Part shown: positions 23,437-49,454 of the stretch, one piece after another
Layout of the letters: every line of letters starts with the position of its first letter
Position numbering within the stretch: the first letter of the stretch is position 1
Source of the DNA: a virus
Length of the DNA stretch: 64,000 bases
Strand: one strand, 5' to 3'
IMG/VR virus record: IMGVR_UViG_3300044631_002422
Span: 64,001-128,000 of that record
Translations under genes and position numbers: made by a program
The notes under the pieces: generated by a model
The model's database searches: none
Seen by the model: only the letters and a program-made list of their open reading frames with translations
Told to the model about the DNA's origin: nothing

Positions 23437-25525
23437 AATACCTGATTATCTTAAAAAGTCAGCAAAAGATTATGGACAGATAATTAAAAGTGGTACAGAA
23501 GTATTAAAAGAAAAAAGCAGTTATGAAATTATTTCTGTGGGTCCAGCAATTGATATTGCTCTTGGAGGAGGAATAAAAGAAGGTAGTTGGGTTACTTTAA
23601 CCGGCGATCCTAAGAGCGGAAAAGATCAGCCACTGACATCTACAGTTTATACACCAGATGGTCCTAAAACAATGGGATCATTAAAAATTGGAGATTTGGT
23701 TTGTACTCCAGATGGCGACTTCGCGAAAATAAACGGTATTTATCCACAGGGATTAAAAGATGTTTATAGAGTTACATTTAATGATGGAACTTTTGCGGAG
23801 TGCGGGATAGACCACTTATGGAAAGTATGCAAAAATTATCACGGAAGAAATGACGAATGGGTAGTTTTACCATTGAGACAGATAATAGAAGAAGGCTTAT
23901 TTTACAGCGATAGAGCAAAGTGGAAAATTCCTATATGTGAACCTGTTTATTTCGGCTGTAAAAATCTTGAAATAGATCCGTATATACTGGGGTGCTTAAT
24001 TGGCGATGGTGGGTTGTCACAAGGAACTCCTATTATTACCACATCAGATAATGAAATTTTAGAAGCTTTTAAATATTATGCAAAAAATAATGGCTTAGAA
24101 ATTCATCATAGATCAAGATATGATTATTCTATTGTTGGATATGAAAAAAATGTTAATAATTTAACTAATAAGTTAAGAACATTAAATCTTATGGGTAAAA
24201 ACTCTCATACAAAATTTATACCACAAAACTATCTTTATTCATCTATTAATGATAGATTTGAATTAATTCGTGGGCTGATGGATACTGACGGATATAATGA
24301 CAATGGTAAGTCTGCTGAATACAGCACTGTGTCATACTTATTAAGTATTCATGTGGCAGAGTTATTGCGTTCGCTTGGGTATATGGTAAAAACAAAAGAA
24401 AGAATGACAAAATGCAATGGTCAAGAATTTAAATCTTTTAGACTTTATATATCAGGCAATGATGTAAATAAGCTTTTTAAGCTTAGTCGTAAAATTTTCT
24501 ATTCAAAAAGAAAAAAACCAAAATTATTCAAAACTATAAAGAAGGTTGAAGTTGTTAGAAAAGAAGAAACTCAATGTATCTTTATTAACCACCAAGACCA
24601 TCTTTATTTAACTGATAGTTTTAATGTTACTCACAATACAACTACAGCAATGCAGATAGCCGCTAATTGCCAAAAGCTTGGAAGAAACATAATTTATATT
24701 GACGCAGAAGGAAGATTCAAGGATATGAATTTTCAAGTGGACGGACTAGATCCTGAAAAGATGCTTATTATGGCTCCAGAAGACAAACCTATTCCAGCTG
24801 AGAAGTTTCTTGAATGGGCTTATATGATGATGAGTCACTCTGACAATTATGGGGCAGTATTGATTATTGATTCTATATCGTCGCTAATACCAGAAAAAGA
24901 ACTTGATGGAGATTTCACTGCTGGCCGCGCTGGATTACCAAAGGTTCTTTCTGTATTCACGAAGAAGGTTGGTCAGTTACTACCGAGGCAACGCGGTCTT
25001 GTTATTGCAATAACTCATTACATTGCGAATACATCCGGTTTTGGTAAAGCTAAAATGGCTGATGGTGGAAATAAAATTCAATATCAAGCTGACACAAGAA
25101 TGGAAATTGCTGGCGGCGGAGAAAATACCCCGGCAGTTAAATTTTGGGAAGATGATGAAGGTAAACGAGTTGGTCAGGTAGTTAACTGGAAAATTATTTG
25201 TTCATCTATGGGACCACCGGGAGGACAGGTACAGAGTTATATCAAGTACGGCCACGGGATTGACCGAACGCAGGAAATTTTAATGCTTGCTTTAGATCTC
25301 GGTTTAATAGATAAATCCGGCGCTTGGTTTACTTGTTCTTTTATTCAACTTTATAAAGATTTAGCAAAACAAATTTTTCCAGATATAAATGTTGAAAATC
25401 AAGAAGAGTTGTTTTCAGTAAAAGGTTTTAAGTTTCAGGGGCAAAATAAACTATATGATTTTTTGAAATCTCATCCAGTTCTTGTTGATACCCTAGAAAA
25501 GATGATAAAGGAAAACTTAACATGA
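23423..25525 (+). CDS. recA: RecA-like recombinase containing an intein
   Basis: IDIALGGGI, Walker A GDPKSGK|TT split by the intein, YIDAE, IIDSISSL, GGNKIQYQADTR, GLIDKSGAWF. Confidence 0.92.
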   Translation: MAVTKIPDYLKKSAKDYGQIIKSGTEVLKEKSSYEIISVGPAIDIALGGGIKEGSWVTLTGDPKSGKDQPLTSTVYTPDGPKTMGSLKIGDLVCTPDGDFAKINGIYPQGLKDVYRVTFNDGTFAECGIDHLWKVCKNYHGRNDEWVVLPLRQIIEEGLFYSDRAKWKIPICEPVYFGCKNLEIDPYILGCLIGDGGLSQGTPIITTSDNEILEAFKYYAKNNGLEIHHRSRYDYSIVGYEKNVNNLTNKLRTLNLMGKNSHTKFIPQNYLYSSINDRFELIRGLMDTDGYNDNGKSAEYSTVSYLLSIHVAELLRSLGYMVKTKERMTKCNGQEFKSFRLYISGNDVNKLFKLSRKIFYSKRKKPKLFKTIKKVEVVRKEETQCIFINHQDHLYLTDSFNVTHNTTTAMQIAANCQKLGRNIIYIDAEGRFKDMNFQVDGLDPEKMLIMAPEDKPIPAEKFLEWAYMMMSHSDNYGAVLIIDSISSLIPEKELDGDFTAGRAGLPKVLSVFTKKVGQLLPRQRGLVIAITHYIANTSGFGKAKMADGGNKIQYQADTRMEIAGGGENTPAVKFWEDDEGKRVGQVVNWKIICSSMGPPGGQVQSYIKYGHGIDRTQEILMLALDLGLIDKSGAWFTCSFIQLYKDLAKQIFPDINVENQEELFSVKGFKFQGQNKLYDFLKSHPVLVDTLEKMIKENLT
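23624..24637 (+). mobile_element. 338-aa class-3 intein with LAGLIDADG endonuclease in the RecA P-loop
   Basis: Starts DQPLTSTVYTPDG; block B CGIDHLW; LAGLIDADG motifs LGCLIGDGG and IRGLMDTDG; block F TQCIFI; ends VTHN followed by Thr+1. Confidence 0.9.
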
Positions 25526-32031: not shown

Positions 32032-32779
32032 AATAGTTCTTTTAACTGAGTTTTATAAGTCAAAATTCGAAGAAAGAAACAAAGAGTTGCTGGACTCTTT
32101 GCAAAGAAATATTGATTGTGAACATATCAAAAAAATTGTTTTGTTTTATGAAAATAGTCTAGACGAATATCCAGATATAGCATTCAGCCCAAAGATTGAA
32201 ATTGCTTATACAAAATCAAGAATGAAGTTTGCAGACTATTTTAATTACTACAATAGTAACCTATCTGGACATATTTGCATAATTGCCAACAGTGATATCT
32301 ACTTTGATGATTCAATAAAACATATTCACAACATCAGAGAAAATGAATTTTTATGTATAACCAGATGGAATCGAAATGAGCTTCAGGGACATGACGAATA
32401 TAGTCAAGATGTGTGGGTTTTTAGAAAACTAATACCGCAAAAAATGGTTGATTGTTCAGGTTTTTACCTTGGCAAACAGCAATGCGATAATAGAATATCT
32501 TTTGTGGCGATGAAGAATGGATTTGATTTAATTAATCCGTGCCATTTAGTCAAATGTCAACATCTACATAAAGACCCAGATAAAATCACTTACAACAAAA
32601 AAGAGAACTTTAAAAATTTACTATATTTGTCAACGGTTAAACCGTCTGATAAAATTGAATATACCGAGAATAATGTTTGTTCATATTGGGCAGATTCTGG
32701 TGGAACTAGGTATTGCGGATCATGGTATGTTAACTTTTGCAGGAATGAATTAAATGACTTGGAATCCAATCAATTGTAA
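32003..32779 (+). CDS. putative GT-A fold glycosyltransferase
   Basis: ERNKELLDSL..N, IIANSDIYFD, SQDVWVF, LGKQQCDNRI, NPC...HLH. Confidence 0.65.
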   Translation: MDTTKLPEVKIVLLTEFYKSKFEERNKELLDSLQRNIDCEHIKKIVLFYENSLDEYPDIAFSPKIEIAYTKSRMKFADYFNYYNSNLSGHICIIANSDIYFDDSIKHIHNIRENEFLCITRWNRNELQGHDEYSQDVWVFRKLIPQKMVDCSGFYLGKQQCDNRISFVAMKNGFDLINPCHLVKCQHLHKDPDKITYNKKENFKNLLYLSTVKPSDKIEYTENNVCSYWADSGGTRYCGSWYVNFCRNELNDLESNQL

Positions 32780-34331
32780 AACACATTTTAGCTTGCAGCA
32801 CGGTTTTTGCAAACCTGATAAACTTTCTAAAAAATGCGCTGATTATGGTTACACATCTTGCGGAATCGCAGATTTTGGAACCTTGTCTGGTGCAGTTGAC
32901 TTTCATCAAAATTGCACTAAATATGGTATCAAGCCAATAATTGGGTGCGAATTTGATGGATACATTCTTTATGCTAAAAACAAAAACGGATGGTTTGACT
33001 TGGTTAAATATGTATCAAACCAAACACTGGATGTTTTAAAAGAAATAGCAAAAAATGGAAATGTACTTTGTGTAACACCATCTGTAAACGGTTTTGCTAA
33101 TCTATTTAAATCAAACCATATTCAACTAGATTATCCAAGTGAAGCTATCTATTATGTGGAAAAAAATGATGCAGATTGTCATAGAATTATGCTTTGTGGT
33201 AAGCTAAAAACAACACTAAAGAAAATTAAATTACTGGAAGTAAACGAGTACAGCCAGTTTTTTGATGATAATGACAGATGGTATTTACCATCCAATGATG
33301 AAATTCTAGACAGGTCTAAAAATATCGCTAAAATAGTTGACGCTTGCGAAGCTTACGAGCTTGCTGGACCTCCTATGCTTCCTGCTTTTGAATGTCCAAC
33401 TGGCTATGATGAAGACGAGTATTTGACTGAACTTTGTAGAAGTGGCTGGAAAAATAAATTAGTTCCATTCAAAAAAATATCAACAGAAGAACAAAAGAGT
33501 ATTTACGCAGAAAGAGTAAAGCATGAACTTAAGGTTATATTCAAGGCTAAACTTTCTGGTTATTTCTTGATTGTTCAAGATATCATTCGATGGGTTAAAT
33601 CAAAAGGTTGGCTTGCTGGTCCGGGACGAGGCAGTGCCGCAGGATGCCTTATTTCTTATCTACTTGATATAACTGAAGTAGATCCAATAGAATATGATTT
33701 GATCTTCGAAAGGTTTTATAATGAAGGAAGAAACACCGATGGTAACGTGGCTATTCCAGATATTGATATGGATATACCAGCCGAACACCGCGACGAAGTT
33801 ATTGATTATATCAAACAAAAATATGGAGCGTCTAACGTATCTCAAATGATAACATTTGGAAGACTGCAAGGCAGAGCGGCCATAAAAGAAGTTCTTAGAA
33901 TCAATGAGGCTGTGTCATTCGCAGAAATGAATGCTATAACAGATAGTATTCCTGACGAAGCTAAAATTTCTGACCAGTTAGAGCTTATGGAAGAAAAGTC
34001 AATCATCAAGTGGGCGTTAGAAAATGAACCAGATAATTTAAGGAATTGGTGCTTCTATAATGACAATGAAAAGCTTGATGGTCCTTTGGCGAATTTGTTT
34101 GAACAAGCTATAAAAATAGAAGGAACAAATAAGTCTCAAGGTAAACACCCTGCTGGTGTTATTATATCGAAACACAAGCTAAATGAAGTTTGTCCAATGA
34201 CAAGTGATAAGTCTGGAGATTCTATTGTTGCTTTTGAAATGAATGCTTTGGAATACCAAGGCCATATAAAATTTGATGTTCTGGGAATTGATTTACTTTC
34301 TAAGATAATGGAGATTTGTGAAAATGACTGA
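32754..34331 (+). CDS. dnaE: DNA polymerase III alpha, piece 1 (PHP + palm/thumb)
   Basis: HFSL..G, IKPIIGCE, YFLIVQDI, GPGRGSAAGCLISYLLDIT, FERF, PDIDMD, GKHPAGVII, ends KFDVLGIDLLSKI. Confidence 0.95.
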   Translation: MTWNPINCKTHFSLQHGFCKPDKLSKKCADYGYTSCGIADFGTLSGAVDFHQNCTKYGIKPIIGCEFDGYILYAKNKNGWFDLVKYVSNQTLDVLKEIAKNGNVLCVTPSVNGFANLFKSNHIQLDYPSEAIYYVEKNDADCHRIMLCGKLKTTLKKIKLLEVNEYSQFFDDNDRWYLPSNDEILDRSKNIAKIVDACEAYELAGPPMLPAFECPTGYDEDEYLTELCRSGWKNKLVPFKKISTEEQKSIYAERVKHELKVIFKAKLSGYFLIVQDIIRWVKSKGWLAGPGRGSAAGCLISYLLDITEVDPIEYDLIFERFYNEGRNTDGNVAIPDIDMDIPAEHRDEVIDYIKQKYGASNVSQMITFGRLQGRAAIKEVLRINEAVSFAEMNAITDSIPDEAKISDQLELMEEKSIIKWALENEPDNLRNWCFYNDNEKLDGPLANLFEQAIKIEGTNKSQGKHPAGVIISKHKLNEVCPMTSDKSGDSIVAFEMNALEYQGHIKFDVLGIDLLSKIMEICEND

Positions 34332-34554
34332 CAATCGAGACGTTTATAAGGCTGTAATTTTTGACGGTGCTATCATAGAATCAAACGGAGTGTCTTTGTG
34401 CAACCTTGAAGATGCTATGCGAGGAAATTCTTTTATACCGCGAGCAAAGTACCAAGTGTGGTCAGATCGGCACAAGTTTCATGAGTTGTTCTTTAGTATT
34501 GATGAAGCTGTAGAAAAATTCTTAGAACTCAAGTCTAGAAAGAATTGGAACTAA
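34324..34554 (+). CDS. hypothetical protein
   Basis: ORF overlapping the stop of dnaE piece 1. Confidence 0.65.
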   Translation: MTDNRDVYKAVIFDGAIIESNGVSLCNLEDAMRGNSFIPRAKYQVWSDRHKFHELFFSIDEAVEKFLELKSRKNWN

Positions 34555-34555
34555 T

Positions 34556-34978
34556 ATGGAAATAGAAGTTTCTAATGGTGAAGTAATTGACAAATTAACT
34601 ATTTTGAATATAAAGTCTGAGAAAATTAAAGATCAAGAAAAACTTGAGAATATCCATCGCGAATTGCATTTTCTAAGGATGAAGTCTACCGAGTGGTGGA
34701 GTTATTGGGAAAAAGAGATACTTCCTTTATTTGATAGTTTACTATCGGTTAATCGGCAACTTTGGGATATTGAAGATAAAATACGCGAGCTAGATAATGA
34801 GGTATTTCTACCACGTTTAGATGCTGCTATACAATCTGTATACCGTTTTTCTAAAGTTTGTGAATATATAGAGTGCGCAAGAATGGTTTATACGTTGAAT
34901 GATAAACGATCTAAAATCAAACGCGAAATCAATGAAATTACCAAGTCTGGAATAATAGAAGAAAAATCTCATTTTTAG
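34556..34978 (+). CDS. DUF6165-like protein
   Basis: EVSNGEVIDKLTILNIK...VNRQLWDIEDKIR...ARMVY.LNDKRSKIKREIN...EEK. Confidence 0.8.
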   Translation: MEIEVSNGEVIDKLTILNIKSEKIKDQEKLENIHRELHFLRMKSTEWWSYWEKEILPLFDSLLSVNRQLWDIEDKIRELDNEVFLPRLDAAIQSVYRFSKVCEYIECARMVYTLNDKRSKIKREINEITKSGIIEEKSHF

Positions 34979-34988
34979 AAAGATTTAT

Positions 34989-35675
34989 ATGAATCATCGG
35001 GATATAATCGTGTTTGATTTTGAAACGACTGGCAGGAATCCATTAAAGTGTCAACCAACACAAATTGCCGCTGTAGCTATACATGCTAGAAAGTTGACAA
35101 TACAACCCGGAGGAGTTTTTGAAAGTAATATACGTTGCATAGTAGATGACGAAAAGGCTATAGCGGCTGGTTTTGACCCAGTAGAAGAAGGCGCTCTTGA
35201 AGTTACTAGAAAAACAAGAGATCAAATATCTAAAGGACCATCGCCAAAAGTAGTATGGCAAAAGTTCACCCAGTTTTGCGAAAAATTTAACTTCAACAAG
35301 ACCTCATTTTCTGCCCCAATAGCGGCTGGTTATAATATCAATAGTTATGATATGCCGATTGTACAAAGAATGTGTGAAATGTATGGTCCTGTAGATGAAA
35401 AAACTGGCCGTCAAAAAATATTCAATCCTATCTTTTCAATGGATCTTATGCAGCACATTTACTGCTGGTTTGAAAACAATGCCGATGTTAAAGGTTACAG
35501 CATGGACTATCTAAGAGACTATCTTGGAATGTCAAGCGAAAAATCACACGATGCATTGCAGGACGTTAAAGATACAGCTAATATACTAATAAGGTTTCTG
35601 GTTATGCAAAGAAACCTTTCGAAGAAAATTAAATTTGAGAAAGCTTTTGCGAATGGCGATCTTCACATAAAATAG
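34989..35675 (+). CDS. dnaQ: DEDDh 3'-5' exonuclease (DnaQ/epsilon-like)
   Basis: ExoI FDFETTG, ExoII AGYNINSYD, ExoIII HDALQD. Confidence 0.9.
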   Translation: MNHRDIIVFDFETTGRNPLKCQPTQIAAVAIHARKLTIQPGGVFESNIRCIVDDEKAIAAGFDPVEEGALEVTRKTRDQISKGPSPKVVWQKFTQFCEKFNFNKTSFSAPIAAGYNINSYDMPIVQRMCEMYGPVDEKTGRQKIFNPIFSMDLMQHIYCWFENNADVKGYSMDYLRDYLGMSSEKSHDALQDVKDTANILIRFLVMQRNLSKKIKFEKAFANGDLHIK

Positions 35676-35683
35676 GAATCCGA

Positions 35684-36502
35684 ATGTTTGATATTAATAA
35701 TTTTGACGACTCCAAAGTTTGGGACTTGATTTGCGAAGGAGATACTAAAGGTATTTTTCAGCTTGAATCAAATCTTGGTAGGTATTGGGCAAAAGAAACT
35801 AAGCCGCGCAATATAAAAGAATTAGCGGCTTTGATTAGTCTTATTCGTCCCGGAACTCTGCTTGCTAGAGATGCAAATGGTAAAAGCATGACTCAGGTTT
35901 ATGCTGATCGTAAGAATGGTAAACCCAATTCGCCGGTAGAATATCTGCACGATTCTTTGGAGCCAATACTCAAAGAAACATACGGCGTTTTGGTTTATCA
36001 AGAACAATCTATGATGATCGCGCAAAAACTGGCAGGTTTCGATTTGAAAGAAGCTGACGCACTCAGAAAGGCTATTGGAAAAAAGAAAGCCGATCTCATG
36101 GAGAAAGTAAAGAAAGCTTTTCTAGAAGGCGCGGCTAGTCAAGGAATCATTACTAAGGAAATTGCAGAGGAATTGTTTTCTTGGATTGAAAAATCTAACC
36201 GTTATGCATTCAATAAATGCTTGTCTCCCAAAACTATTGTAATCACAGAAAATGGAGAAAAGTGTTTAGATGAATTAAATATAGGCGATAAAGTTCTTGC
36301 TCCTAAAAATTTGAACGAAGATGAATTTGTTGAAGTTATAGATATAATTGATAATGGAATAAAAGAAGTTGTTGAAATAACTATGGAAGATGGTAAAAAA
36401 ATTATATGCACATTAGACCATAAATTCCTTTGTTCCGATGGAAAAGTTCATAAATTGATAGAAATTTTAGAGCAGAATTTGGAAATAATGTGTATAGATT
36501 AG
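35684..36502 (+). CDS. dnaE: DNA polymerase III alpha, piece 2 (fingers) fused to split intein N-half
   Basis: DDSKVWDLI..GDTKGIFQLES, LIRPG, ETYGVLVYQEQ, ADALRKAIGKK, YAFNK, then CLSPKT intein start. Confidence 0.95.
   Translation: MFDINNFDDSKVWDLICEGDTKGIFQLESNLGRYWAKETKPRNIKELAALISLIRPGTLLARDANGKSMTQVYADRKNGKPNSPVEYLHDSLEPILKETYGVLVYQEQSMMIAQKLAGFDLKEADALRKAIGKKKADLMEKVKKAFLEGAASQGIITKEIAEELFSWIEKSNRYAFNKCLSPKTIVITENGEKCLDELNIGDKVLAPKNLNEDEFVEVIDIIDNGIKEVVEITMEDGKKIICTLDHKFLCSDGKVHKLIEILEQNLEIMCID
36218..36499 (+). mobile_element. split intein N-fragment (94 aa)
   Basis: Block A CLSPKTIV; block B ICTLDHKF; acidic; followed by TAG stop. Confidence 0.92.
36489..36498 (+). promoter_or_regulatory. 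late-promoter-like motif upstream of the homing endonuclease
   Basis: TGTGTATAGA within the last IntN codons; first 9 nt match the motif at 11108. Confidence 0.4.
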
Positions 36503-36531
36503 TATGAGATTTATTAACAGGAGTCATACTA

Positions 36532-37437
36532 ATGAGTATAAAAAAAGAAGATTGGCATATATGCAAAATGTGCAATAAAAAAATTAAAGATCTATCTAAA
36601 GAGCTTGGCGGCAGCGGTATATACAGCACAGAAGTATTTGCCAAACATTTAAATCAATTTCATAAAATTACTCCAGAAGATTACTTTGAAAAAATATCGA
36701 ATAGACCAAAATGTTCATGTGGAATATGTGACTCAAATGTCGATTTAACTTGGAAAGGCAAAACCAATTTCAACTGGAGACAATATAAATGCGGAAGAAA
36801 TGAAGGTGTTAAAAAATGGAGCGAAGAAGCAAAGAAAACTAGATCCGGTAAAAATAATCCAATGTATAATAAAATACCTTGGAATAAAGACAAAACCAAA
36901 GATAACTCAGAATCTCTAAAAATTGTTTCTCAAAAAATGAGTGGACGAAGCGTGTCTGAAGAGATTAGGCAAAAACAATCAAAATCAGCTAAATCTCGTT
37001 TGAGTCATGGTCATACAGGCTTTAAACATTCCGAAGAAAGTAAAGATAAAATGCGCCAATCGACTTTATCAATGATAAAGAATGGAAGATTTAAACACAC
37101 AAAAACCAAACCGCATTTAGAATTTGCCAAGATATTGTCTGAATTAAATATTGCTTTTCAAGAAGAATATGTTATTAAATATTGGTCATTTGATTTTTTC
37201 TTGACTGATTTCCATGTATTAATAGAGGTAGATGGAGATTATTTTCATTCAAATCCAAAGTTTTATAACAAACCAAAAACCAAAACTCAAAAAATAAACT
37301 CATACAGAGATCAAAAGAAAAATGATTTTTGCGAGTCTAATGGCTACGCTTTGATTAGAATATGGGAAGACGATGTTATCAACAACAAAGAGAAAATATT
37401 ATGCAGCCTAAAAGAATTGTTCATGTTCGGACAATAG
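36532..37437 (+). CDS. free-standing homing endonuclease (Zn fingers + NUMOD3 + Vsr/DUF559-like nuclease)
   Basis: CKMC..H...H, CSCGIC, GKNNPMY..IPWNK, GFKHSEESKDKM, FDF...IEVDGDYFH...D..K......GY.LIRIWE; AGGAG RBS. Confidence 0.9.
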   Translation: MSIKKEDWHICKMCNKKIKDLSKELGGSGIYSTEVFAKHLNQFHKITPEDYFEKISNRPKCSCGICDSNVDLTWKGKTNFNWRQYKCGRNEGVKKWSEEAKKTRSGKNNPMYNKIPWNKDKTKDNSESLKIVSQKMSGRSVSEEIRQKQSKSAKSRLSHGHTGFKHSEESKDKMRQSTLSMIKNGRFKHTKTKPHLEFAKILSELNIAFQEEYVIKYWSFDFFLTDFHVLIEVDGDYFHSNPKFYNKPKTKTQKINSYRDQKKNDFCESNGYALIRIWEDDVINNKEKILCSLKELFMFGQ

Positions 37438-37514
37438 GAAATATTCCAACAATGGATATTGAAGTCAATAGCGATTCTCATATTTTTTATGGAGATGGTA
37501 TCGTTACATCAAAT
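37401..37514 (+). mobile_element. split intein C-fragment (38 aa)
   Basis: Blocks F/G TMDIEV..SHIFY..IVTSN followed by Ser+1. Confidence 0.9.
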
Positions 37515-38540
37515 TCACATGCTATTTCATATGCAATCAATGCTTATTGGTCCGCTTATTGTAAAACCTACAAACGTAAGAAGTTTTATGAAAAATATCT
37601 CAATAGGTCAGATAGAAAGCCTGATCCAGATATAGAGAAGAAACAATTAATAATGGATGCAAAGCGGTGCGAGATAGAAGTTTTACCGCCCAGATTACAA
37701 CATTTACACAAGGACTTTACTAGGCATCCTAGCAAAGATATTATTTACTATGGATTGTCACATGTTAAACATGTTGCTGAAAAGGAGTGTGACAAACTCA
37801 TTGGTTTATCAGGTGTTGAAAAGTATAACTGGATGGATTGCTTGATCAATATCGTTCATGGTTTAAATATTAATAAAAGCGCCACCGTAGCGCTTATTTC
37901 TGTTGGTGCGTTTAATGGAATCAACAATACAACAAGTAGACAAAAGATGTTGTACGAGTTTGATAGCTGGAAGCATCTTACTGCCAAAGAACAAGAAGCA
38001 ATTGCAAATGCCTATAATTCAGGTTCGCAAAAACCAAAAGATTTAACGCAGGCAATAGAGTGGCTTATTACAAATACCAAGATTAACTCCAGAAGATTGC
38101 AATCGGTAGAAGATATAAAAAATTCTCTAAAAAATCCTTTCTATGATATCGACGATAAACCAGAAACAATTGCCGCAGATGAAGAAAAATATATGAGTTG
38201 CTCCTTAACATGTAGTAAAGTTGATGGTTTAGACCTAAATACAGTGATAAATATGTGTCAAGATGTGTCTAGCCATTCTATAATAGGTAAGGTAACTCTT
38301 GCTGTAGAAATTGTGCGCATAAAGATTGTAAAGACTAAAAAGGGTAAAACTCCCGGTCAGGAAATGGCTTTTCTGACTGTCGAGGATGGAAGTGGATCTT
38401 TAGACTCAATAACCATTTTCCCAGAAGCTTACGATAAATACAAAGACTTACTAGTGGAAAATAATACTGTTCTTTTGATTGGCGAGATATTTAAAAAAGA
38501 TAAAGAAGCTATCATCGTCAATCAAGTATCGCAAATTTGA
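37401..38540 (+). CDS. dnaE: split intein C-half fused to DNA polymerase III alpha, piece 3 (fingers/HhH/OB)
   Basis: MQPKRIV...DIEV..HIFY..GIVTSN then SHAISYA; YYGLSHVKHV (HhH); LISVGAF; MAFLTVEDGSG...IFP..Y (OB). Confidence 0.93.
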   Translation: MQPKRIVHVRTIGNIPTMDIEVNSDSHIFYGDGIVTSNSHAISYAINAYWSAYCKTYKRKKFYEKYLNRSDRKPDPDIEKKQLIMDAKRCEIEVLPPRLQHLHKDFTRHPSKDIIYYGLSHVKHVAEKECDKLIGLSGVEKYNWMDCLINIVHGLNINKSATVALISVGAFNGINNTTSRQKMLYEFDSWKHLTAKEQEAIANAYNSGSQKPKDLTQAIEWLITNTKINSRRLQSVEDIKNSLKNPFYDIDDKPETIAADEEKYMSCSLTCSKVDGLDLNTVINMCQDVSSHSIIGKVTLAVEIVRIKIVKTKKGKTPGQEMAFLTVEDGSGSLDSITIFPEAYDKYKDLLVENNTVLLIGEIFKKDKEAIIVNQVSQI

Positions 38541-38550
38541 AAGGTAATAT

Positions 38551-38883
38551 GTGAATAAATGTCATTTTTTAGGAAAATTAACACGCGAACCAAATGTTAA
38601 AAAAGAAAACAATGTTTCGGTAATTGATTTTGAATTAGAAATAGAAGAGTTTAGAAAAGATAACAATAAAGATAAAGTTAGGTCTGTAATATATTTGAAT
38701 TTTGAAGCTTGGGACACGGCGGCTGAAGCTATTGAAAAGTATGCTAAAAAGGGAAGCTTAATGGCAATAGAGTCAGTAGCAAGAAACTATTTTTATGAAG
38801 ATCCGAATAATCCAGAAGCTGGCGAAATAATTGAAACGTATTTTCGAGTAACTAATTTTAAAATCCTTGGATTTGGAACATGA
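38551..38883 (+). CDS. ssb: second SSB-like OB-fold protein
   Basis: NKCHFLGKLTREP...FEAWDTAAEAIEKYAKKGS; no acidic tail. Confidence 0.8.
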   Translation: MNKCHFLGKLTREPNVKKENNVSVIDFELEIEEFRKDNNKDKVRSVIYLNFEAWDTAAEAIEKYAKKGSLMAIESVARNYFYEDPNNPEAGEIIETYFRVTNFKILGFGT

Positions 38884-40514
38884 GAAAAAAAAGGATACTT
38901 TGGGTAAACGATGCGTCTTGGAAAGGAACTGGTTATGCCGTTTACTCCAATGAGGTATTGTCTAGGCTTAATAAGGTTGAAGATTTTGAAGTTGCTGAAA
39001 TAGCTTGTTATGCAGACAAAAATGATCCAAAAATAAAAGAAGTTCCTTGGAAGGTTTACCCGAATAGACCCTTGGAAACGGACCCTTCGTTTGAAAGTTA
39101 TGTAAAAAATCCAAGCTCAATTTTTGGCGAAAATTCTTTCAACGAAGTTCTTTTAGACTTCATGCCGGATATAGTTATGGATATACGAGACTGGTGGATG
39201 TTTGAATATCAGCAACGTTCGCCATTTCGTGACTTTTTTCATTGGGCTATAATGCCAGCCGTTGATGCTGCTCCTCAAAATCCTCAATGGTTGAATACCT
39301 ATGCTTCCGCTGATAGCGTTTTTGGGTATTGTGAATTCAGTAAAAAGACGTTGCAAAATCAATCGGACAAGATAAACTTTATAGATATAGCATCCCCAGC
39401 AGCCAATGCCGAAGATTTCAGACCAGTCGAGAATAAACAACTTCACAAAGATGCTATGGGACTAGATTCTGGTTCTATAATAGTAGGAACTGTGATGCGT
39501 AATCAACGCAGGAAACTTTATCCAGACCTATTTAAAGCGTTTAGAATGTTTCTTGACAAAACTAAAAACCCAAATGTCTTTCTTCTCTGCCATAAATATT
39601 ATCCAGATATTGGCTGGGAAACTCCTGTACTACTTGATATGTTTGGCTTAAGCAATAGAGTGTTATTTTCATATAAGTGTCAAGAGTGCAAAGATATCAG
39701 TGTTGACTTCTTTAAAGATTCAGTAACTCATTGTACAAAATGTAAAAAATTTAGCAAAAGGCTGGTTGGCGTTGACAACCCTATGAACAATCAAGAGTTG
39801 AGCAAAGTATACAATCTTTTTGATGTATATGTTCAGTATGCCAACAGCGAAGGATTTGGTATGCCGCAGTTAGAAGCTGCTTATTGCGGAGTTCCAGTAA
39901 TGACTATTTATTACTCTGCAATGAAGTCAGTGGCAGATAATATTGGAGCTATACCAATACATCCAATCCAATATTCAATGGAATGCGAAACTGGATGTTA
40001 TCGAGCTATACCAAACAATCAGCAATTTGTAGAAAAGTTAGAAGATATATTGAACGCCGATTTCAGATCGTTTGGTTTAAAAACCGCCGAGTTGGCTAGG
40101 AATCATTATAGTTGGGATAAAACTGCTAAAGTGTGGATAGACTACTTTAAAACAGTTCCAATGAAGAATCATCTTGATACATGGAAGTCTCCGCCTAAAA
40201 TATTCGAACCAACAACAACGATACCAAATGATATTGTTGATTTAAAAGATCAAGTTAATTATATATTTAGATACGTTCTTTATAAACCAGAATGGATTGG
40301 TGGGTATTTTTGGTCAAAAGTATTGAAAGATATTACATTTGGATACCGCGTAAGAAATTCTGAAGATGATTATTACTTCAATGAATCACATATGCCAGCA
40401 GTTGATAAGTATGAAAAGTTTAATTTTGTTATGGCAGTAAACGAGCTAACAAATCTTAGAAACCAATGGAACGAATGGGAAAAATTAAGGAGTGAATACA
40501 TTGCAAGACTTTAG
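38880..40514 (+). CDS. glycosyltransferase family 4 with CxxC-CxxC insertion
   Basis: TGYA, GTVMRNQRRK.YP, YNLFDVYVQYANSEGFGMPQLEAAYCGVP; CQEC...CTKC. Confidence 0.9.
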   Translation: MRKKRILWVNDASWKGTGYAVYSNEVLSRLNKVEDFEVAEIACYADKNDPKIKEVPWKVYPNRPLETDPSFESYVKNPSSIFGENSFNEVLLDFMPDIVMDIRDWWMFEYQQRSPFRDFFHWAIMPAVDAAPQNPQWLNTYASADSVFGYCEFSKKTLQNQSDKINFIDIASPAANAEDFRPVENKQLHKDAMGLDSGSIIVGTVMRNQRRKLYPDLFKAFRMFLDKTKNPNVFLLCHKYYPDIGWETPVLLDMFGLSNRVLFSYKCQECKDISVDFFKDSVTHCTKCKKFSKRLVGVDNPMNNQELSKVYNLFDVYVQYANSEGFGMPQLEAAYCGVPVMTIYYSAMKSVADNIGAIPIHPIQYSMECETGCYRAIPNNQQFVEKLEDILNADFRSFGLKTAELARNHYSWDKTAKVWIDYFKTVPMKNHLDTWKSPPKIFEPTTTIPNDIVDLKDQVNYIFRYVLYKPEWIGGYFWSKVLKDITFGYRVRNSEDDYYFNESHMPAVDKYEKFNFVMAVNELTNLRNQWNEWEKLRSEYIARL

Positions 40515-41091
40515 TTGGATAATCGACCAAATAAATAAAGGCAGCATAAACCTAGATACGATTCGTATCGAGAGCAATCTAGCTGTAAGAGATGGTTTGT
40601 TTAAAGAAATATTGGACTCTTTTAATGAACAGCCAATCAAAGTTTTTCAAATTGGAGCAATAGAATCTCTAGAAAATAAATTCAGGATTGGCTCTGGTTG
40701 GAGCGACTTATTTTTTGGTGTTTATATTAAAAAATATGGCGGAACCCTTGTAGTTGTAGATATATGCTTGAACCATATAGCTAATTCAAGTTTTGTATCT
40801 AGCCAGATAGGTTATGAAACAAATTTTATTTTTGGAGATGCAAATAATTTTATTTCTACTGGATATGACATATACTATCTCGATGGTGCTGACATATCTT
40901 ATGCGGAAGATGCTTACGAGCAAACATTGTCACAATTCAAGAAAATTGAAGGTACAAATTCTGTTGTTCTTGTTGATGATGCTCCAAGCAAGGGCAAGGC
41001 TTTGCTCGATTACCTAAAACAAAAAAACATACCATATACATACCATAATTTTGGTTCTGGAATGATCAAGATTGATATGAGGTCAAAATGA
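40492..41091 (+). CDS. putative SAM-dependent methyltransferase
   Basis: VFQIGA, VVVDI, YDIYYLDG, VLVDD...KG. Confidence 0.65.
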   Translation: MNTLQDFSWIIDQINKGSINLDTIRIESNLAVRDGLFKEILDSFNEQPIKVFQIGAIESLENKFRIGSGWSDLFFGVYIKKYGGTLVVVDICLNHIANSSFVSSQIGYETNFIFGDANNFISTGYDIYYLDGADISYAEDAYEQTLSQFKKIEGTNSVVLVDDAPSKGKALLDYLKQKNIPYTYHNFGSGMIKIDMRSK

Positions 41092-42167
41092 AAGTTCTTT
41101 ATATTGGACACTATAGAGATGGAACAGGATGGGGAAATGCAGCTATAAACAATATTTTAGCCTTGGATTCTGTTGGGGTTAAAGTTGTTCCGCGAGCCAT
41201 TACATACGAGGCTCAAGATAGGTTATATCCAAATAGAATCCGAGAATTGGAAGATAACTCAGAGTCTGGTTGCGATATTGTGATTCAACACACGTTGCCA
41301 AATAACTACTGGTATAATTCTAGTTATAGAAATATTGGCTGTATGACTGCCGAGTCTTCAAATTTTAAATCAACAGGATGGCAAAACTATTGCAATATAA
41401 TGGACGATATTTGGGTTTCGAGTAAAGTGACAAAAGATATATGCAAACGAAGCGGAGTCAAAACACCAATAGATATTGTTCCTTATGCTATAGACTTAAG
41501 TAAATATGAAAACCCATCTGGCGAACAAATAGAAGAACTAAAAAACAACTTTACTTTTGGTTTTGTTGGCGAGTTTATTGAGCGTAAAAACATAAAAGCT
41601 CTTATCCAAGCTTTTCATATGGAGTTTGATCCAAGAGAACCCGTTAACTTGTTGATCAAAACCTCAAAAAGAGATTTAAATGGAATTCAGGCTTATTTTA
41701 ATCATATCAAACGAGGGTTAAAAATAAGACAAAATTACATAGAAGAAATAATCATAACTGGAATCATGCCAGAAAATGACTACATATCTGTTTTATCGCA
41801 AGTAGATTGTTTTGTTATGCCGAGCAGAGGAGAAGCTGGTTGTATTCCATCGCTTGAAGCTATGGCTCTAGGAATACCCGTTATTTGGACTCATGGCATA
41901 GGAATGGACCACGCAATTGGTACAGCGGTAAAATCCGATAACGTCCCTTGTTTTGGGGCAATAGAAACTCTTAATGACTTAGACACTGCGGAAGCTACAT
42001 GGAAGGATATCGATGTAATAGAATTGACAAATGCTATGAGAAAAATGTATGAAAACATAATTGTCAAAAATAACAAAGAAAACATGGCAAAACAATGCAA
42101 AAATCAAGCAGCGAGATATTCTCACAAAGAAATAGGAAAACTTATGCTGGAGGTTTTAAATAAATGA
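41088..42167 (+). CDS. glycosyltransferase family 4
   Basis: GTGWGNAA, ERKNIKAL, FVMPSRGEAGCIPSLEAMALGIPVI. Confidence 0.9.
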   Translation: MKVLYIGHYRDGTGWGNAAINNILALDSVGVKVVPRAITYEAQDRLYPNRIRELEDNSESGCDIVIQHTLPNNYWYNSSYRNIGCMTAESSNFKSTGWQNYCNIMDDIWVSSKVTKDICKRSGVKTPIDIVPYAIDLSKYENPSGEQIEELKNNFTFGFVGEFIERKNIKALIQAFHMEFDPREPVNLLIKTSKRDLNGIQAYFNHIKRGLKIRQNYIEEIIITGIMPENDYISVLSQVDCFVMPSRGEAGCIPSLEAMALGIPVIWTHGIGMDHAIGTAVKSDNVPCFGAIETLNDLDTAEATWKDIDVIELTNAMRKMYENIIVKNNKENMAKQCKNQAARYSHKEIGKLMLEVLNK

Positions 42168-43192
42168 CCGCTAGAGCCAATGTCAGAGCAGTTCGTTCAT
42201 TTATGGGGAAGAATAAACCAAAAGACAAGTTGAATATTTTGACTTTTCCAACCCATGAACGCTATGAAGAAAATCTTTGTAGAACCGGGCATAATTTTTA
42301 CGCATTCAACTATGGGAAAACTTGGAATACAACGTATGCTCCAGTTCCTGAAAACTATCATATAATCAATAGTCTTCCTAATTGGCTTGATATTGATTTA
42401 GTTTTGAGTCACACATCATGCGAACGACTCCAAGTAGCACATGATTTACTTTCCGAAACTTTAGGAATATCGGACGGTGTATCAGTTCCAATACTGAGGC
42501 ATTGTCACATTCTTCCGACTGCTGGACTTGAGAATCAAGTAGAAAATTACAAAAACATAAAAGTATTTCGCGACTCATTTATTTCAAAGTATAGCATGAA
42601 TGCTTGGGGATATACAGACGATGAAGCTTTTGTTGTAAATCATGGAATTGATACAGATTTTTGGAAACCGGACAATTCGATAAAACGCGACAATGTTTTA
42701 TTGTCAGTAGTAAACGATTGGCCAAACCGTGATTGGTGTTGCGGGTTTAACTTGTGGAGACGTACAGTTAAACTAGGAACTGAAAACCAATTACCAGTTA
42801 GTGTCTTTGGAGATAGTCCGGGATTATCAATTGCAGCAAAAGATAAACAGCATTTACGACAAATATATCAAAATTCAAGTATCTTTTATAACACATCGCT
42901 GTTTTCACCAATTCCAACTGTGTTAATGGAAGCAATGGCTTGTGGCTGTGCAATTATTTCAACAAATAATTGTATGATACCAGAAGTTATAGAGCATGGC
43001 TACAATGGTCTTTTATCAAACGATCCAGACGAGCTAACTTCATATTGCGAATTGTTGTTAAATAAACCAGAGTTCGCAAGAAGGCTTGGAAATAACGCTA
43101 TGTTGACAATACTAGAAAAGTATAATATGCAAAATTTTATCGATAATTGGAACACATTACTTTACAATACAGTTGGAGATTTTAGATGTTGA
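42164..43192 (+). CDS. glycosyltransferase family 4
   Basis: HGIDTDFWKP, PTVLMEAMACGCAIIS...PEVIEHGYNGLL. Confidence 0.9.
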   Translation: MTARANVRAVRSFMGKNKPKDKLNILTFPTHERYEENLCRTGHNFYAFNYGKTWNTTYAPVPENYHIINSLPNWLDIDLVLSHTSCERLQVAHDLLSETLGISDGVSVPILRHCHILPTAGLENQVENYKNIKVFRDSFISKYSMNAWGYTDDEAFVVNHGIDTDFWKPDNSIKRDNVLLSVVNDWPNRDWCCGFNLWRRTVKLGTENQLPVSVFGDSPGLSIAAKDKQHLRQIYQNSSIFYNTSLFSPIPTVLMEAMACGCAIISTNNCMIPEVIEHGYNGLLSNDPDELTSYCELLLNKPEFARRLGNNAMLTILEKYNMQNFIDNWNTLLYNTVGDFRC

Positions 43193-43632
43193 TATACCTA
43201 ACAGGAAGAGATTTGGTCTTATCAGTGCCAGAAGCTTACTCAAAGCATAACATATATCGTGACGCTGCTTCGTTATCGCGGAACGTGCTTCAAAATGAAG
43301 CTACTGAAATTATTTGTCAAGATTTTCTTTGCTGCTTCAACTGGAAAGACCTTCCAAAAATAATCGATTTAATCTTAAGTAAAATGAGAAAAGGTTGCAA
43401 GTTGACTATAATAGAAAAAGACTTGAGATTAATTTCTAGACAAGTTTACAAAGATTTATACAATACAGAACTTTTAAACAAAAAAGTGTTCGAATTTGGC
43501 CAAATAGTCAAGTCTTTGTTTTCTTTAGAAGATATAATTGGACATATAACTGATACCGATCAATATATTGTAACATCTAAGGGCTTCATAGATGCAACAA
43601 GTTTTAGCCTAATAGTGGAGAGAGTTAGATGA
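43186..43632 (+). CDS. hypothetical protein (possible truncated methyltransferase fold)
   Basis: EIICQDFL...KMRKGCKLTI resembles the C-terminal half of a class I MTase. Confidence 0.5.
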   Translation: MLIYLTGRDLVLSVPEAYSKHNIYRDAASLSRNVLQNEATEIICQDFLCCFNWKDLPKIIDLILSKMRKGCKLTIIEKDLRLISRQVYKDLYNTELLNKKVFEFGQIVKSLFSLEDIIGHITDTDQYIVTSKGFIDATSFSLIVERVR

Positions 43633-44429
43633 AAATAGTTACGCATTGCGAAGATTGTATATTCGCTAAATTAAATAAAGAAAATAAACAAGAATCGTGT
43701 TCACTTGATAGGCCGAATAAACTTGGTATTGAAAAGTTAGAGGGTGATTATTTCGAGTTGCGGAGGTATTGCAATGCGTTTCGTCCACTGGAGTGGGTTC
43801 AACAATTAGAGTTTGAAGAGTCATTAAATCCAGAAAATGCAGTTCTACAGGAAGTATATCCAAGAATTGGTTTTTTTGTAAAGCTAAATACAAATGAACC
43901 AAACGCAATAGATGCTTTGGATCTAACTATAAATTCTATCACTAAAATTCATGGTAAACAGGCATCGTATGTCGTTGTAATTAATGATAAAGTTGAATAC
44001 AATGAAGAAATATGGGGACTCTTTATCAAGTACTTTGGCGAACAATCACCGGTAACAAAATACCATATTGTACAAATTGAAGAAAAGCCAAATAAAATAA
44101 TTCAAATAATTGACGAAGCTTTCGGCAAGGCGGAAAATAGTTGGATAATGTGTACATCGAGCGGACTTAGAGTTAAGCCGGAAACGCTTGATAGGCTTCA
44201 TGAAATTCTTAACATAGAAATGAAGCAAATCACAATGATAGAACCAATTGATGATTTTAACGGACTTATGTTTCCGGCTTATTTATTCAAGTTCTTGAAT
44301 GGAAATAAAACAAAAGTTTTCAGTGATGAAATAGCTGACAGTAATGAATTCATTGAAAAAGTAAGAAACGCAGAAGAGCGTGGACAAACAAAAACCATAT
44401 TTAACTGGAGAGAGTTTTATGGGAAATAA
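43629..44429 (+). CDS. hypothetical protein (Cys-rich N-terminus, degenerate GT-A-like region)
   Basis: CEDC...C...C N-terminus; VVVIND; located in the glyco cluster. Confidence 0.55.
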   Translation: MKIVTHCEDCIFAKLNKENKQESCSLDRPNKLGIEKLEGDYFELRRYCNAFRPLEWVQQLEFEESLNPENAVLQEVYPRIGFFVKLNTNEPNAIDALDLTINSITKIHGKQASYVVVINDKVEYNEEIWGLFIKYFGEQSPVTKYHIVQIEEKPNKIIQIIDEAFGKAENSWIMCTSSGLRVKPETLDRLHEILNIEMKQITMIEPIDDFNGLMFPAYLFKFLNGNKTKVFSDEIADSNEFIEKVRNAEERGQTKTIFNWREFYGK

Positions 44430-45153
44430 CTTTCCAAATGTTGCTATTGTTTGCGCAAATTACAACTATGGTAAATTTATAGTTGCTGCAATGAAAAGCA
44501 TTATGAGCCAAACATATAAAGGTAAAATTCGTCTTTATGTTGTAGATGACGGATCTACCGATAACTCATGGGAATTAATATCTGAATATGCCGCGTTATT
44601 TTCTGATAAAATTTTTCCAATCAGAATACAAAATTCTGGCGCTAGTGCTGCTAGAAATTTAGCAATTGAATACGCTATTGAATGGGCTGAAATCATAGGT
44701 ATACTTGATGCTGATGACGCATACATGCCAAATAAAGTCGCGGTCTTAGTTAACAAACTTGTAGAACATGACGAAATAGGCGTTGCTTACGGCGATTATA
44801 TGAATGTATTTCCAGAGTATTCTAAACTAGAATTCAAGTCATCTTACAGTAAAATAGGTCTTCTACAAAAGTGTATGGTTCATAGTAATTCTTTGATAAA
44901 AAAGAAATACTTACAACAAGCAAAACTTCCAAACGGAGACTTCTTTGATAGAAATCTTCATGGACCGGCAAGCAAAGATTTTATTGGATGCACCGAAGAT
45001 TATGACTTATGGATAAGATTGTCTAACTTATGTATCATAACACACGTTCCAGAATGTTTAGCTATTGCCAATCAACATGGAAACAATCAATCAATGAAGA
45101 TGACTGCTGAAATTTTCAATCAAAACACACGAACAATGATGGAAAGAAAATGA
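44419..45153 (+). CDS. glycosyltransferase family 2
   Basis: NYNYGKFI, VVDDGSTDNS, GASAARN, LDADD, EDYDLWIR. Confidence 0.93.
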   Translation: MGNNFPNVAIVCANYNYGKFIVAAMKSIMSQTYKGKIRLYVVDDGSTDNSWELISEYAALFSDKIFPIRIQNSGASAARNLAIEYAIEWAEIIGILDADDAYMPNKVAVLVNKLVEHDEIGVAYGDYMNVFPEYSKLEFKSSYSKIGLLQKCMVHSNSLIKKKYLQQAKLPNGDFFDRNLHGPASKDFIGCTEDYDLWIRLSNLCIITHVPECLAIANQHGNNQSMKMTAEIFNQNTRTMMERK

Positions 45154-45860
45154 GTAGATTTGTTACCAATATAAGAAAAAAAGTAGTTCAAAATGATCAG
45201 TCAGATGGTATATCGGTAGCAATACTTTCCGCTGGCTGTGGAAGTAAAATCAAGTCATATGAACCAAGAAGTTTGCTAAAAATAAACAACGAAGAATTTT
45301 TGATAGATCATCAACTTACAACTATAGCTAATTTTTTTGTAAAACCGGAAATCATTACTGTTGTTGGTTGCTATGCAAACAAGGTAATCAAAAAAATTAA
45401 AGGTAAATGCAGAGTAGTTGAAAATCAGATACATGAAGAAACTAATGCTTCAGAAAGTATGAGACTTGCGTTCAACAATTCAAGCATGTCAAGTTTTATG
45501 TTTATACATGGAGATATTCTGTTTGATACAAATTGTTTAGATGCAGAATACTCTCATTCGTTTATAATTACAGATTCCAAAAAAATGATAGGTGAAAATG
45601 AAATAGGAGTTACTATTGTTGATAATAAAGCTTCGATAATGTCATACGGACTTCCTATAAAATGGGCGCAAATAGCGTTTTTTACTGGCAAAGAGTTAAA
45701 AATACTAAATAACATCTTTCAAAGATTTGAAGACAAAGATAAAAAGAAACTTTCATTTGAAATAATTAATGATGTTATTTCTAACGGGGGAGTGTTTCAT
45801 TGTTATGAACCACATAAGATGAGAATCAAGGAAATTGATACAATAAAGGATATAGAATGA
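45150..45860 (+). CDS. sugar/phosphocholine nucleotidyltransferase-like protein
   Basis: ILSAGCGSKI....PRSLL, IHGDILF, EIDTIKD. Confidence 0.8.
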   Translation: MSRFVTNIRKKVVQNDQSDGISVAILSAGCGSKIKSYEPRSLLKINNEEFLIDHQLTTIANFFVKPEIITVVGCYANKVIKKIKGKCRVVENQIHEETNASESMRLAFNNSSMSSFMFIHGDILFDTNCLDAEYSHSFIITDSKKMIGENEIGVTIVDNKASIMSYGLPIKWAQIAFFTGKELKILNNIFQRFEDKDKKKLSFEIINDVISNGGVFHCYEPHKMRIKEIDTIKDIE

Positions 45861-46903: not shown

Positions 46904-47855
46904 AATTTTGATTACTGGGTCTACTGGATTTCTTGGTAGGGCAGTTATGAGCGCAATCGATGATAAATATATCAAAATTGGGCTTAAGGGAAAATCTCAT
47001 TGTGATTTAACAAATCAAAAATATGTTGATTATACTTTACAAGAATATGAACCGGACTATATTATTCATCTAGCTGCCGCCTGTGGAGGGATAGGAATAA
47101 ACCAAAAATTACCGGGACAATTCTTGTATGACAATCTAGCGATGGGAATGAATTTAATCGAAAGCTGCCGCAAATATGGCAGACTGAAAAAATTCATTAT
47201 GGTTGGCACTGTTTGTTCTTATCCTAAATACACTCCAGTTCCATTTCAAGAAGAAGATCTTTGGAACGGATATCCTGAAGAAACCAATGCTCCATACGGT
47301 ATAGCAAAAAAGACGTTAATAGAAATGCTTGTTGCTTATAATAAGCAGTATGGATTTAATTCCACAAACTTAATACCAGTAAATATGTATGGCCCAAACG
47401 ATAATTTCAATCCTACTAGCAGTCATGTTATACCAGCATTGATATTAAAAATAGATCGCGCTATTCAAAATAATGAAAACAGTATCATACTATGGGGCAG
47501 CGGACACGCAAGTCGTGAATTTTTGTATGTTGAAGATTGCGCGCAGGCAATCGTTTCTTGCCTAAATGTAGATACTGATCCATATCCAATCAATATAGGA
47601 ACATGTAGCGAAATTACTATCAAAGATCTAGTATCAAAGATTGCAAATGTAATGGGCTATAATGGAAACATATTATACAATTTAAATTATCCAGATGGTC
47701 AACCAAGGAGATGTTTAGATATAACCAAAGCTTCAACTATTCTAAATTTTACAGCTAAAACAAATCTTGACGATGGATTGAAACAAACCGTTGACTGGTA
47801 CTACAAAAACAAAGATATGGAGAAATTCGTTGATTACTTTAATTATATTCAGTAA
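46890..47855 (+). CDS. fcl: GDP-L-fucose synthase (epimerase/reductase)
   Basis: TGSTGFLG, HLAAACGGIG, CSYPK, PYGIAKK, PVNMYGPNDNF, SHVIPALI, WGSG.ASREFLYVED, PDGQPRR. Confidence 0.95.
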   Translation: MNKPKILITGSTGFLGRAVMSAIDDKYIKIGLKGKSHCDLTNQKYVDYTLQEYEPDYIIHLAAACGGIGINQKLPGQFLYDNLAMGMNLIESCRKYGRLKKFIMVGTVCSYPKYTPVPFQEEDLWNGYPEETNAPYGIAKKTLIEMLVAYNKQYGFNSTNLIPVNMYGPNDNFNPTSSHVIPALILKIDRAIQNNENSIILWGSGHASREFLYVEDCAQAIVSCLNVDTDPYPINIGTCSEITIKDLVSKIANVMGYNGNILYNLNYPDGQPRRCLDITKASTILNFTAKTNLDDGLKQTVDWYYKNKDMEKFVDYFNYIQ

Positions 47856-49451: not shown

Positions 49452-49454
49452 ATT

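Follow-up and report, generated by a model that had tools for sequence, protein, structure and literature searches.

How does a phage obtain a working replicase when its only dnaE is spread over three open reading frames (ORFs)? The window analyzed here (64,000 nt, positions 64,001 to 128,000 of IMG/VR record IMGVR_UViG_3300044631_002422) belongs to a lake phage whose complete, circular 148-kb genome contains no second or intact dnaE outside this locus. An earlier note on the window described a gene interrupted twice, at the palm-to-fingers junction (break 1) and at a split intein (break 2), and proposed that the three pieces form a single assembly with two mechanisms. The ORFs are as it described, and domain matches to DnaE bear out its assignment of PHP, palm and thumb to piece 1 and of fingers, HhH and OB fold to pieces 2 and 3 (Table 1). 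To our knowledge, the catalytic subunit of bacterial-type replicases is known either as one chain or as two chains rejoined by an intein; the dnaE of the window has the domains of the C family (three-Asp palm, fingers, HhH and OB fold) but departs from that pattern at break 1.

Table 1. Features of the dnaE locus, in window coordinates.
Feature	Position	Strand	Remarks
dnaE-N (piece 1)	32754..34331	+	525 aa; PHP and palm/thumb; Asp D338, D340, D508
orfA	34318..34554	+	78 aa
orfB	34556..34978	+	DUF6165; accessory
DnaQ-like DEDDh 3'-5' exonuclease	34989..35675	+	D10, E12, D121, H187, D192 invariant
Piece 2 ORF (dnaE)	35684..36502	+	fingers residues 1-178 and N-intein
Piece 2 N-extein	35684..36217	+	fingers, 178 aa, C-terminal FNK
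N-intein	36218..36502	+	94 aa; Cys1, block B TLDH, acidic tail
RNA hairpin	36498..36533	+	covers part of endonuclease RBS, spacer, start codon
Vsr-like (EDxHD-type) putative homing endonuclease, free-standing	36532..37437	+	301 aa
C-intein	37401..37514	+	38 aa; terminal Ser-Asn
Piece 3 C-extein	37515..38540	+	341 aa; Ser+1, steric-gate His+2, remaining fingers, HhH, OB fold
SSB gene	38551..38883	+	conserved neighbor within replication cluster

No match to the beta-clamp family (Pfam PF00712) was found, and a promoter and terminator scan gave matches at chance level.

A split intein of a known class at FNK|SH

Break 2 has close counterparts. The split intein is inserted at FNK|SH, the boundary between pieces 2 and 3, which do carry complementary halves, as had been claimed, with their catalytic residues intact (Cys1, TxxH, block F Asp, terminal Asn and Ser+1). 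The N-intein scores 32.4 bits against TIGR01445 (cut-off 24.5), and both halves fall within the lengths of fractured genes (88-105 aa for the N-intein, 33-54 aa for the C-intein) and match cis mini-inteins of the same family at 40-59%. The endonuclease, which matches DUF559 above cut-off and Vsr weakly, is encoded on the same strand, 29 nt downstream of the N-intein stop (27-51 nt in fractured genes, whose endonucleases are of the GIY-YIG or Vsr-like type), and its 3' end overlaps the C-intein ORF by 37 nt (6-69 bp in fractured genes). The hairpin 5' of the endonuclease has a z score of -4.6, with a similar fold in locus L216 and a weaker one in L004. Piece 3 most likely starts at the ATG at 37401 rather than at 37362, given its homology with L004, L216 and P0243.

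In the cyanobacterial split DnaE (Ssp/Npu split intein), trans-splicing restores the polymerase chain at a site close to the steric-gate helix and a few residues upstream of FNK|SH. The chain of the window is likewise predicted to be trans-spliced near this helix; in cyanobacteria, however, the halves are unlinked and without an endonuclease, and splicing yields the full-length polymerase in one chain. Similar in layout, as far as the accessible text describes them, are the fractured genes of environmental phages, among them three dnaE loci, which share with break 2 the split intein, the Vsr-like endonuclease between the halves, the 5' hairpin, the overlap of endonuclease and C-intein, and the typical half lengths (Dassa et al., 2009; PMC2677866). 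Judged from sequence, break 2 is a model example of the fractured genes of that study, and its intein adds one more ordinary representative to a known class. Those loci match break 2 only, and the same accessible text makes no mention of an intein-less palm/fingers break. The cassette is present in 1 of 80 split loci and patchily distributed, in a split (L004) as well as a fused (L216) lineage, and therefore appears mobile. It may have arisen when an endonuclease gene invaded one of the cis mini-inteins common at FNK|SH, and the endonuclease would then spread it into empty alleles of that site.

The alternative that survives best, though we think it improbable, is that pieces 2 and 3 stay unspliced and the intein halves merely dock, giving a non-covalent enzyme of three chains. 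The penultimate residue of the C-intein is indeed Ser instead of His, but active cyanobacterial DnaE split inteins can also have a residue other than His there. Moreover, the catalytic residues listed above are all in place, the intein halves are under purifying selection, and a retained intein would adjoin the equivalents of S759 and H760 in the active site; in E. coli alpha, H760 is the modeled steric gate and S759 fits a palm pocket (PMC8485763).

The palm/fingers break

Piece 1 contains, besides the PHP domain, the entire Pfam DNA_pol3_alpha domain (1-260/260), and its stop codon lies 20 residues past the K of KFD. In alignment with E. coli alpha it reaches residue 564 and piece 2 begins at 591, with the ribosome-binding site of its own that had been described (AGGA, 6 nt 5' of the ATG). 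The short missing linker of the earlier note holds against E. coli, which has about 12 residues more, but not against the nearest fused phage relatives, where nothing is missing and the KFD-to-xFQLE spacing is 43 residues, as in the split form. The three catalytic Asp are all in piece 1, as stated, and invariant across 42 homologs; they do not make a complete active site, because the steric-gate His and the basic residues of the fingers sit in pieces 2 and 3. The PHP metal ligands of piece 1 are altered, and the domain is probably reduced and inactive; because of this loss, the DnaQ-like exonuclease in the gap is proposed as the likely proofreader. The two other complete ORFs that accompany dnaQ between pieces 1 and 2, again as described, are less constant. 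orfB occurs only in the window, in L001 and, partly, in L002. orfA is conserved in the near clade, and an Atlas search with it returned nothing above chance; it was rejected both as the linker and as a constant third subunit, since it also adjoins the fused dnaE of L137 and is not recognizable by eye in distant split loci.

Could pieces 1 and 2 nevertheless end up in one chain, through an unrecognized intron, trans-splicing of RNA or ribosome bypassing? With nothing missing relative to the fused relatives, the pieces could in theory be joined exactly, and phage polymerase genes often bear introns. We consider such a join slightly less probable even than an unspliced intein. Gap 1 gave no Rfam intron family at E ≤ 1, no hairpin was found at either edge of the break, and the genes overlap or abut throughout the gap, which leaves no room for a ribozyme. 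Across the family the gap measures 0.87-3.2 kb (about 6.8 kb in L214; 0.16 kb in the more distant phage phiT1, below), falls in all three reading frames and changes in gene content while its genes stay intact. The split halves end and start in variable tails, and the second chain is N-terminally extended in most basal members. Intein motifs, whose absence at break 1 had been noted for the window, are lacking there in all 80 loci.

These 80 loci were found via piece 2, and every one is cut at the identical point with dnaQ in the gap, so that the break point recurs in related phages. An independent search anchored on dnaQ yielded 80 loci, of which 71 are split and 1 is fused; the other 8 are truncated or unlinked. 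Among the nearest 150 clusters at 50% identity, 130 are stand-alone chains beginning at the fingers, called mostly from protein starts, with gene context inspected for four. The sister phage L001 encodes the matching 519-aa fingers/C-terminal chain in one ORF. In bacterial and archaeal genomes (49 matches), the two parts are fused wherever they share a contig, except in L083, a locus inside a MAG with the layout of the split-dnaE phage family. A Cys triad in the second chain co-varies with a His (111/111 versus 26/54), though not significantly in phylogenetically independent pairs (median p 0.25).

By these comparisons, break 1 is an ancient, family-wide feature, a two-gene polymerase of a large uncultured phage family; breaks 1 and 2 are unrelated events, and their combination in three genes is incidental. 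The anatomy and inferred end product in the earlier note thus fit the evidence, while its single two-mechanism system does not, given a split intein in one of 80 loci and the one-ORF chain of L001.

Fission, probable re-fusion and an apparently independent cut

On trees, fused relatives are nested within the split clade (support 99). AU tests, run under LG+G4 with groups defined after the tree was seen, reject monophyly of the split forms alone (p 1.7e-5), a single fused clade (p 3e-6) and placement of phiT1 inside the split clade (p 2.6e-5). The 44-row tree takes four changes, phiT1 included, with one fission and two fusions inside the clade, and at least two re-fusions are probable, a direction that hinges on the distant bacterial and phage DnaEs used as root. 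The cultured Rossellomorea phage phiT1 (GenBank PV767480) is cut at the same point without an intein, into two annotated CDS (gp20/gp18), but it lies outside the clade, its gap holds only a 49-aa ORF, and its PHP motifs are intact. Its cut apparently arose independently. We found no paper on this split polymerase, and scans seeded with phiT1 gp18 and P0160 gave few relatives.

Because phiT1 broke there too, the site appears fission-prone, which lends something to the idea that the two-subunit enzyme is real but fused forms are ancestral, the gene having broken repeatedly at one hinge. This reading, no more probable than a join of RNA, would need many parallel fissions with shared gene order and N-terminal Cys motif, as against one fission and two fusions, and the two fused groups differ in the position of dnaQ. 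Misassembly or a decaying pseudogene, for which only the odd layout speaks, has a negligible probability and is effectively refuted by contigs from four independent runs that bridge both breaks with zero differences (33115-36502 in one contig, 35253-37203, 36431-38101 and 37185-39200), by the absence of a second dnaE, by strong purifying selection on each piece (dN/dS 0.03-0.15; 0.046 for piece 1) and by dozens of contigs that share the layout.

A probable replicase of two subunits

The replicase alpha of this phage is thus, very probably, a natural two-subunit C-family polymerase whose second gene is further interrupted by a split intein at FNK|SH; the same confidence covers the reading as a whole, with break 1 ancestral in the family and re-fusions later. 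The intein halves would associate and splice pieces 2 and 3 in trans into a 519-aa chain as in sister phages, which would dock non-covalently on the 525-aa alpha-N through the ordinary palm/fingers interface. One active site would then be built from two chains: alpha-N would supply the Asp triad, and its partner the steric-gate His together with Arg/Lys of the fingers. The DnaQ encoded in the gap would proofread. The interface obtained by structure prediction (ipSAE 0.54 versus 0.00 for the best control; at least 93% of contacts shared between runs; partner pLDDT at least 79) lends this complex weak support. The mark used was attained by 58 of 80 solved complexes against 2 of 110 mismatches, but at 0.60 or below by only 7 of the 80 together with both mismatches, and the interface might have been learned from structures of intact DnaE.

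A literature search, with most subscription journals outside its coverage, found no description of an intein-less palm/fingers break, although related arrangements exist. Group 2.2 jumbo phages have an intein-less Pol III alpha in two proteins predicted to reassemble, but theirs is a minimal core that lacks further domains, is divided into NTP-binding and Mg/template-binding subdomains and is accessory to a PolB (Iyer et al., 2021; PMC7824862), whereas the window encodes a full-length, sole DnaE with PHP, HhH and OB, cut after the palm and with the whole NTPase domain in piece 1. The PhiKZ DNA polymerase is likewise a phage replicase from two genes, and its stable non-covalent N+C complex, of the kind inferred here, has been solved by cryo-EM; it has the unrelated family B fold and is cut inside a palm insertion (bioRxiv 10.64898/2026.09.30.755723). 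In Aeh1, as summarized in PMC2677866, the essential nrdA is split by an HNH endonuclease gene and active as two unjoined chains, as would hold for the polymerase here, but it encodes a different enzyme and has a homing endonuclease in the gap where gap 1 has a proofreading exonuclease.

We lean, by a small margin, toward a broader picture: a heterodimeric Pol III alpha, with an active site common to two chains, in a very large and old family of uncultured phages that probably infect Planctomycetota. Here the freed fingers N-terminus would have gained a Cys3-His zinc cap, lost later in the subclade of the window, at least two lineages would have re-fused, a cultured Bacillales phage would have made the same cut independently, and the palm/fingers hinge would be a natural, reversible subunit boundary. 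Automatic annotation would label such halves as fragments. The split intein of the window offers at most another orthogonal intein for protein engineering. The two-subunit model is directly testable in phiT1, which is cultured. A full-length polymerase that works in two separate chains, an arrangement preserved in over 100 clusters at 50% identity and reversible by fusion, would mark a natural split point, useful for studies of palm/fingers coupling, for the design of split polymerases and for understanding how the gene of an essential enzyme splits and fuses.

Integrity of the dnaE locus

The ORF positions reported by the earlier note were all borne out when the window was re-read, and the three dnaE pieces are listed in the table with the other features discussed here. 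The start of piece 3 is most probably 37401, because in L004, L216, and P0243 the chain opens with the equivalent Met. In alignment with E. coli alpha, piece 1 reaches residue 564 and piece 2 resumes at 591, the junction being approximately 12 residues shorter. The earlier note considered a short linker to be missing, which holds relative to E. coli but not relative to fused dnaE genes from this group of phages, among them P0121-P0123 (1052 aa, 50-53% identity). In the P0121-P0123 type, 43 residues separate KFD from xFQLE, the exact sum of the window's two split ends, and therefore nothing is missing.

Features of the dnaE locus and of loci compared with it
Feature	Position	Remarks
Piece 1 (dnaE-N, alpha-N)	window 32754-34331	525 aa; PHP and complete DNA_pol3_alpha
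Piece 2	window 35684-36502	Fingers and N-intein
Piece 3	window 37401-38540	C-intein, HhH, OB
RecA	window 23423-25525	700 aa; LAGLIDADG-bearing intein
Apparent glycosyltransferase and sugar-nucleotide genes	window 38880-54491	Long run directly after ssb; equivalent block Pfam-annotated in split and fused relatives
DUF1559 prepilin-like gene (L223)	G000:C1:60007-61044	E 2e-50
Fused-lineage dnaE with cassette	L216:6690-11373	
dnaE-C with frameshift near HhH region	L028:4391-5946	Assembly error or further split
phiT1 dnaE (PV767480)	L081:4128-7410	
Bacillus phage G dnaE, in pieces	L224:3944-5764 (gp339); JN638751 240460-243163	

Two objections anticipated by the earlier note, misassembly and an intact dnaE elsewhere, do not hold. 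Misassembly was rejected because contigs from four independent runs have zero differing letters and bridge the breaks, one covering 33115-36502 and the others spanning the intein cassette. The phage genome, which occurs in lake-water metagenomes, is complete (148,313 bp, direct terminal repeats) and contains no dnaE besides the three pieces. Every part of the locus is under purifying selection; dN/dS against the nearest relative was 0.046 for piece 1, 0.030 and 0.074 for the exteins, and 0.09-0.12 for the intein halves and endonuclease, values that are rough because synonymous sites are near saturation. The surrounding replication cluster comprises RecA with an intein, DnaB, primase, dNMP kinase, a PD-(D/E)XK nuclease, the dnaE pieces, dnaQ, and ssb. 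Nine tRNA genes are present in the genome, and the DUF1559 gene, of a family linked to planctomycetes, hints at a Planctomycetota host.

The palm/fingers break across the phage family

The earlier note proposed surveying related phages for the intein-less break between pieces 1 and 2, and a common cut was found in all 80 IMG/VR loci recovered with piece 2. The gene order dnaE-N, orfA, dnaQ, dnaE-C is shared by 80/80, with dnaE-N stopping approximately 18-25 residues past the K of KFD and dnaE-C restarting approximately 24-27 residues ahead of xFQLE. A dnaQ-anchored search blind to the break, whose locus set overlaps the first, returned 71 split, one fused, and eight truncated or unlinked loci. 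The nearest 150 clusters (50% identity) comprised 130 stand-alone chains beginning at the fingers, 8 fused chains, and 12 unclear cases; among distant stand-alone chains, dnaE-N lay upstream of dnaQ in three of four examined, the contig of the fourth ending sooner. The break is a family trait.

RNA splicing or bypassing is disfavored because the gap varies in size (0.87-3.2 kb among family loci), frame (all three), and content, and an Rfam search of the break gave no signal. In L214 the gap is approximately 6.8 kb and is filled by unrelated metabolic-looking genes. A block of this kind, whose genes look by eye like aldehyde dehydrogenase, amidinotransferase, aminotransferase, and dehydrogenases, is found upstream of dnaQ in L211, L214, and L217, separating dnaE-N from dnaE-C in the latter two. 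A role for orfA as linker substitute was also rejected.

An N-terminal C-x-C...C extension was present on 94 of the 130 stand-alone chains (N-termini P0244-P0382). In all 111 tree rows with the Cys triad, the helix following FNKSH has a His; among the 54 split rows that lack the triad it occurs in 26, and the association was not significant over independent pairs. In AlphaFold2 model ma6633be9079a the extension forms a small beta sheet (pLDDT 90-95) on a DnaE C-half that is normal in other respects. These residues are no more than a lead to a Cys3-His zinc site, and the extension is possibly an adaptation of split chains. The window's subclade has neither triad nor helix His, and the cap may have been lost many times, there included.

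The split-intein cassette and the proposed replicase

The break between pieces 2 and 3 has all the sequence features of the fractured genes of Dassa (2009; PMC2677866): an N-intein (94 aa), a Vsr-like free-standing endonuclease, a hairpin over the endonuclease start (in the 29-nt spacer), a 37-nt endonuclease/C-intein overlap, and a C-intein (38 aa) ending in Asn with Ser next. On these features the intein cassette itself appears to be a new member of that class. Among the 80 loci only L004 carries it besides the window, and the sister phage L001 has one 519-aa ORF, matching the summed length of the two exteins in the window (178 + 341). A scenario in which the endonuclease invaded a mini-intein and homing followed would fit, because the same cassette occurs in the fused-lineage dnaE of L216 and contiguous mini-inteins in the family are 40-59% identical to the window's halves, many at FNK/SH. 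Bacterial dnaE genes of Ca. Fervidibacter and of an Armatimonadota MAG (L093, L094) have a contiguous intein at FNK/S. The earlier note saw novelty in a three-gene, two-mechanism assembly; the layout is real, but one break is apparently a known mobile cassette and the other a separate family trait, and the interest is not in their combination.

Trans-splicing of pieces 2 and 3 would give the second subunit in its usual form. It should be required, because the junction residues are equivalent to E. coli S759 and H760, the latter being the modeled steric gate (PMC8485763). The spliced chain would bind alpha-N via ordinary palm/fingers contacts, forming an active site common to both chains, with Asp338/340/508 from alpha-N and the His gate and Arg128/Lys129 from the second. 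Arg128/Lys129 correspond to E. coli 709/710, which bind triphosphate. Complex prediction for the two chains passed weakly (0.54 versus 0.00 for the best control), at a mark reached by 58/80 solved and 2/110 mismatched pairs, 7/80 and both mismatches being at <=0.60, and could stem from intact DnaE structures that the predictor had already learned. DnaQ is likely the proofreader, since the PHP metal ligands, kept in basal members, are altered in the window's subclade and the DnaQ DEDDh set is invariant.

Probable fission and re-fusion, and known split polymerases

In trees built on fingers/C-terminal columns with inteins left out, the basal members of a 201-row phage clade (support 99) are split, and fused forms fall inside it at two or more separate points. 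AU tests (LG+G4), on groups chosen after the tree was seen, rejected a single fused clade as well as split-only monophyly. Most simply, the gene would have broken once, long ago, and been fused again at least twice, a direction of change that we infer. Fused relatives have dnaQ upstream of dnaE in the P0121-P0123 type and downstream in a second group; in the bacterial genomes retrieved, dnaE is fused. The cultured Rossellomorea phage phiT1 is cut at the same point, without an intein and with a 49-aa ORF between gp20 and gp18. Its break is probably independent, because both tree and AU test place it outside the clade. In phage G, gp339 begins approximately 20 residues before the KFD Asp, unlike the break here; the palm piece lies approximately 5 kb upstream, six genes away.

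The PhiKZ family B replicase is likewise split into two non-covalent chains but belongs to another polymerase family, while the minimal Pol III core of phages, also split non-covalently, is cut elsewhere than palm/fingers, in contrast to the full-length DnaE of the window. No paper on a full-length DnaE cut at the palm/fingers junction was found in the literature searched, with subscription journals mostly outside it. The split gene layout is real; phiT1, being cultured, is the best experimental model for the intein-less break, and the interest lies in a family-wide, apparently two-subunit DnaE and its reversals.
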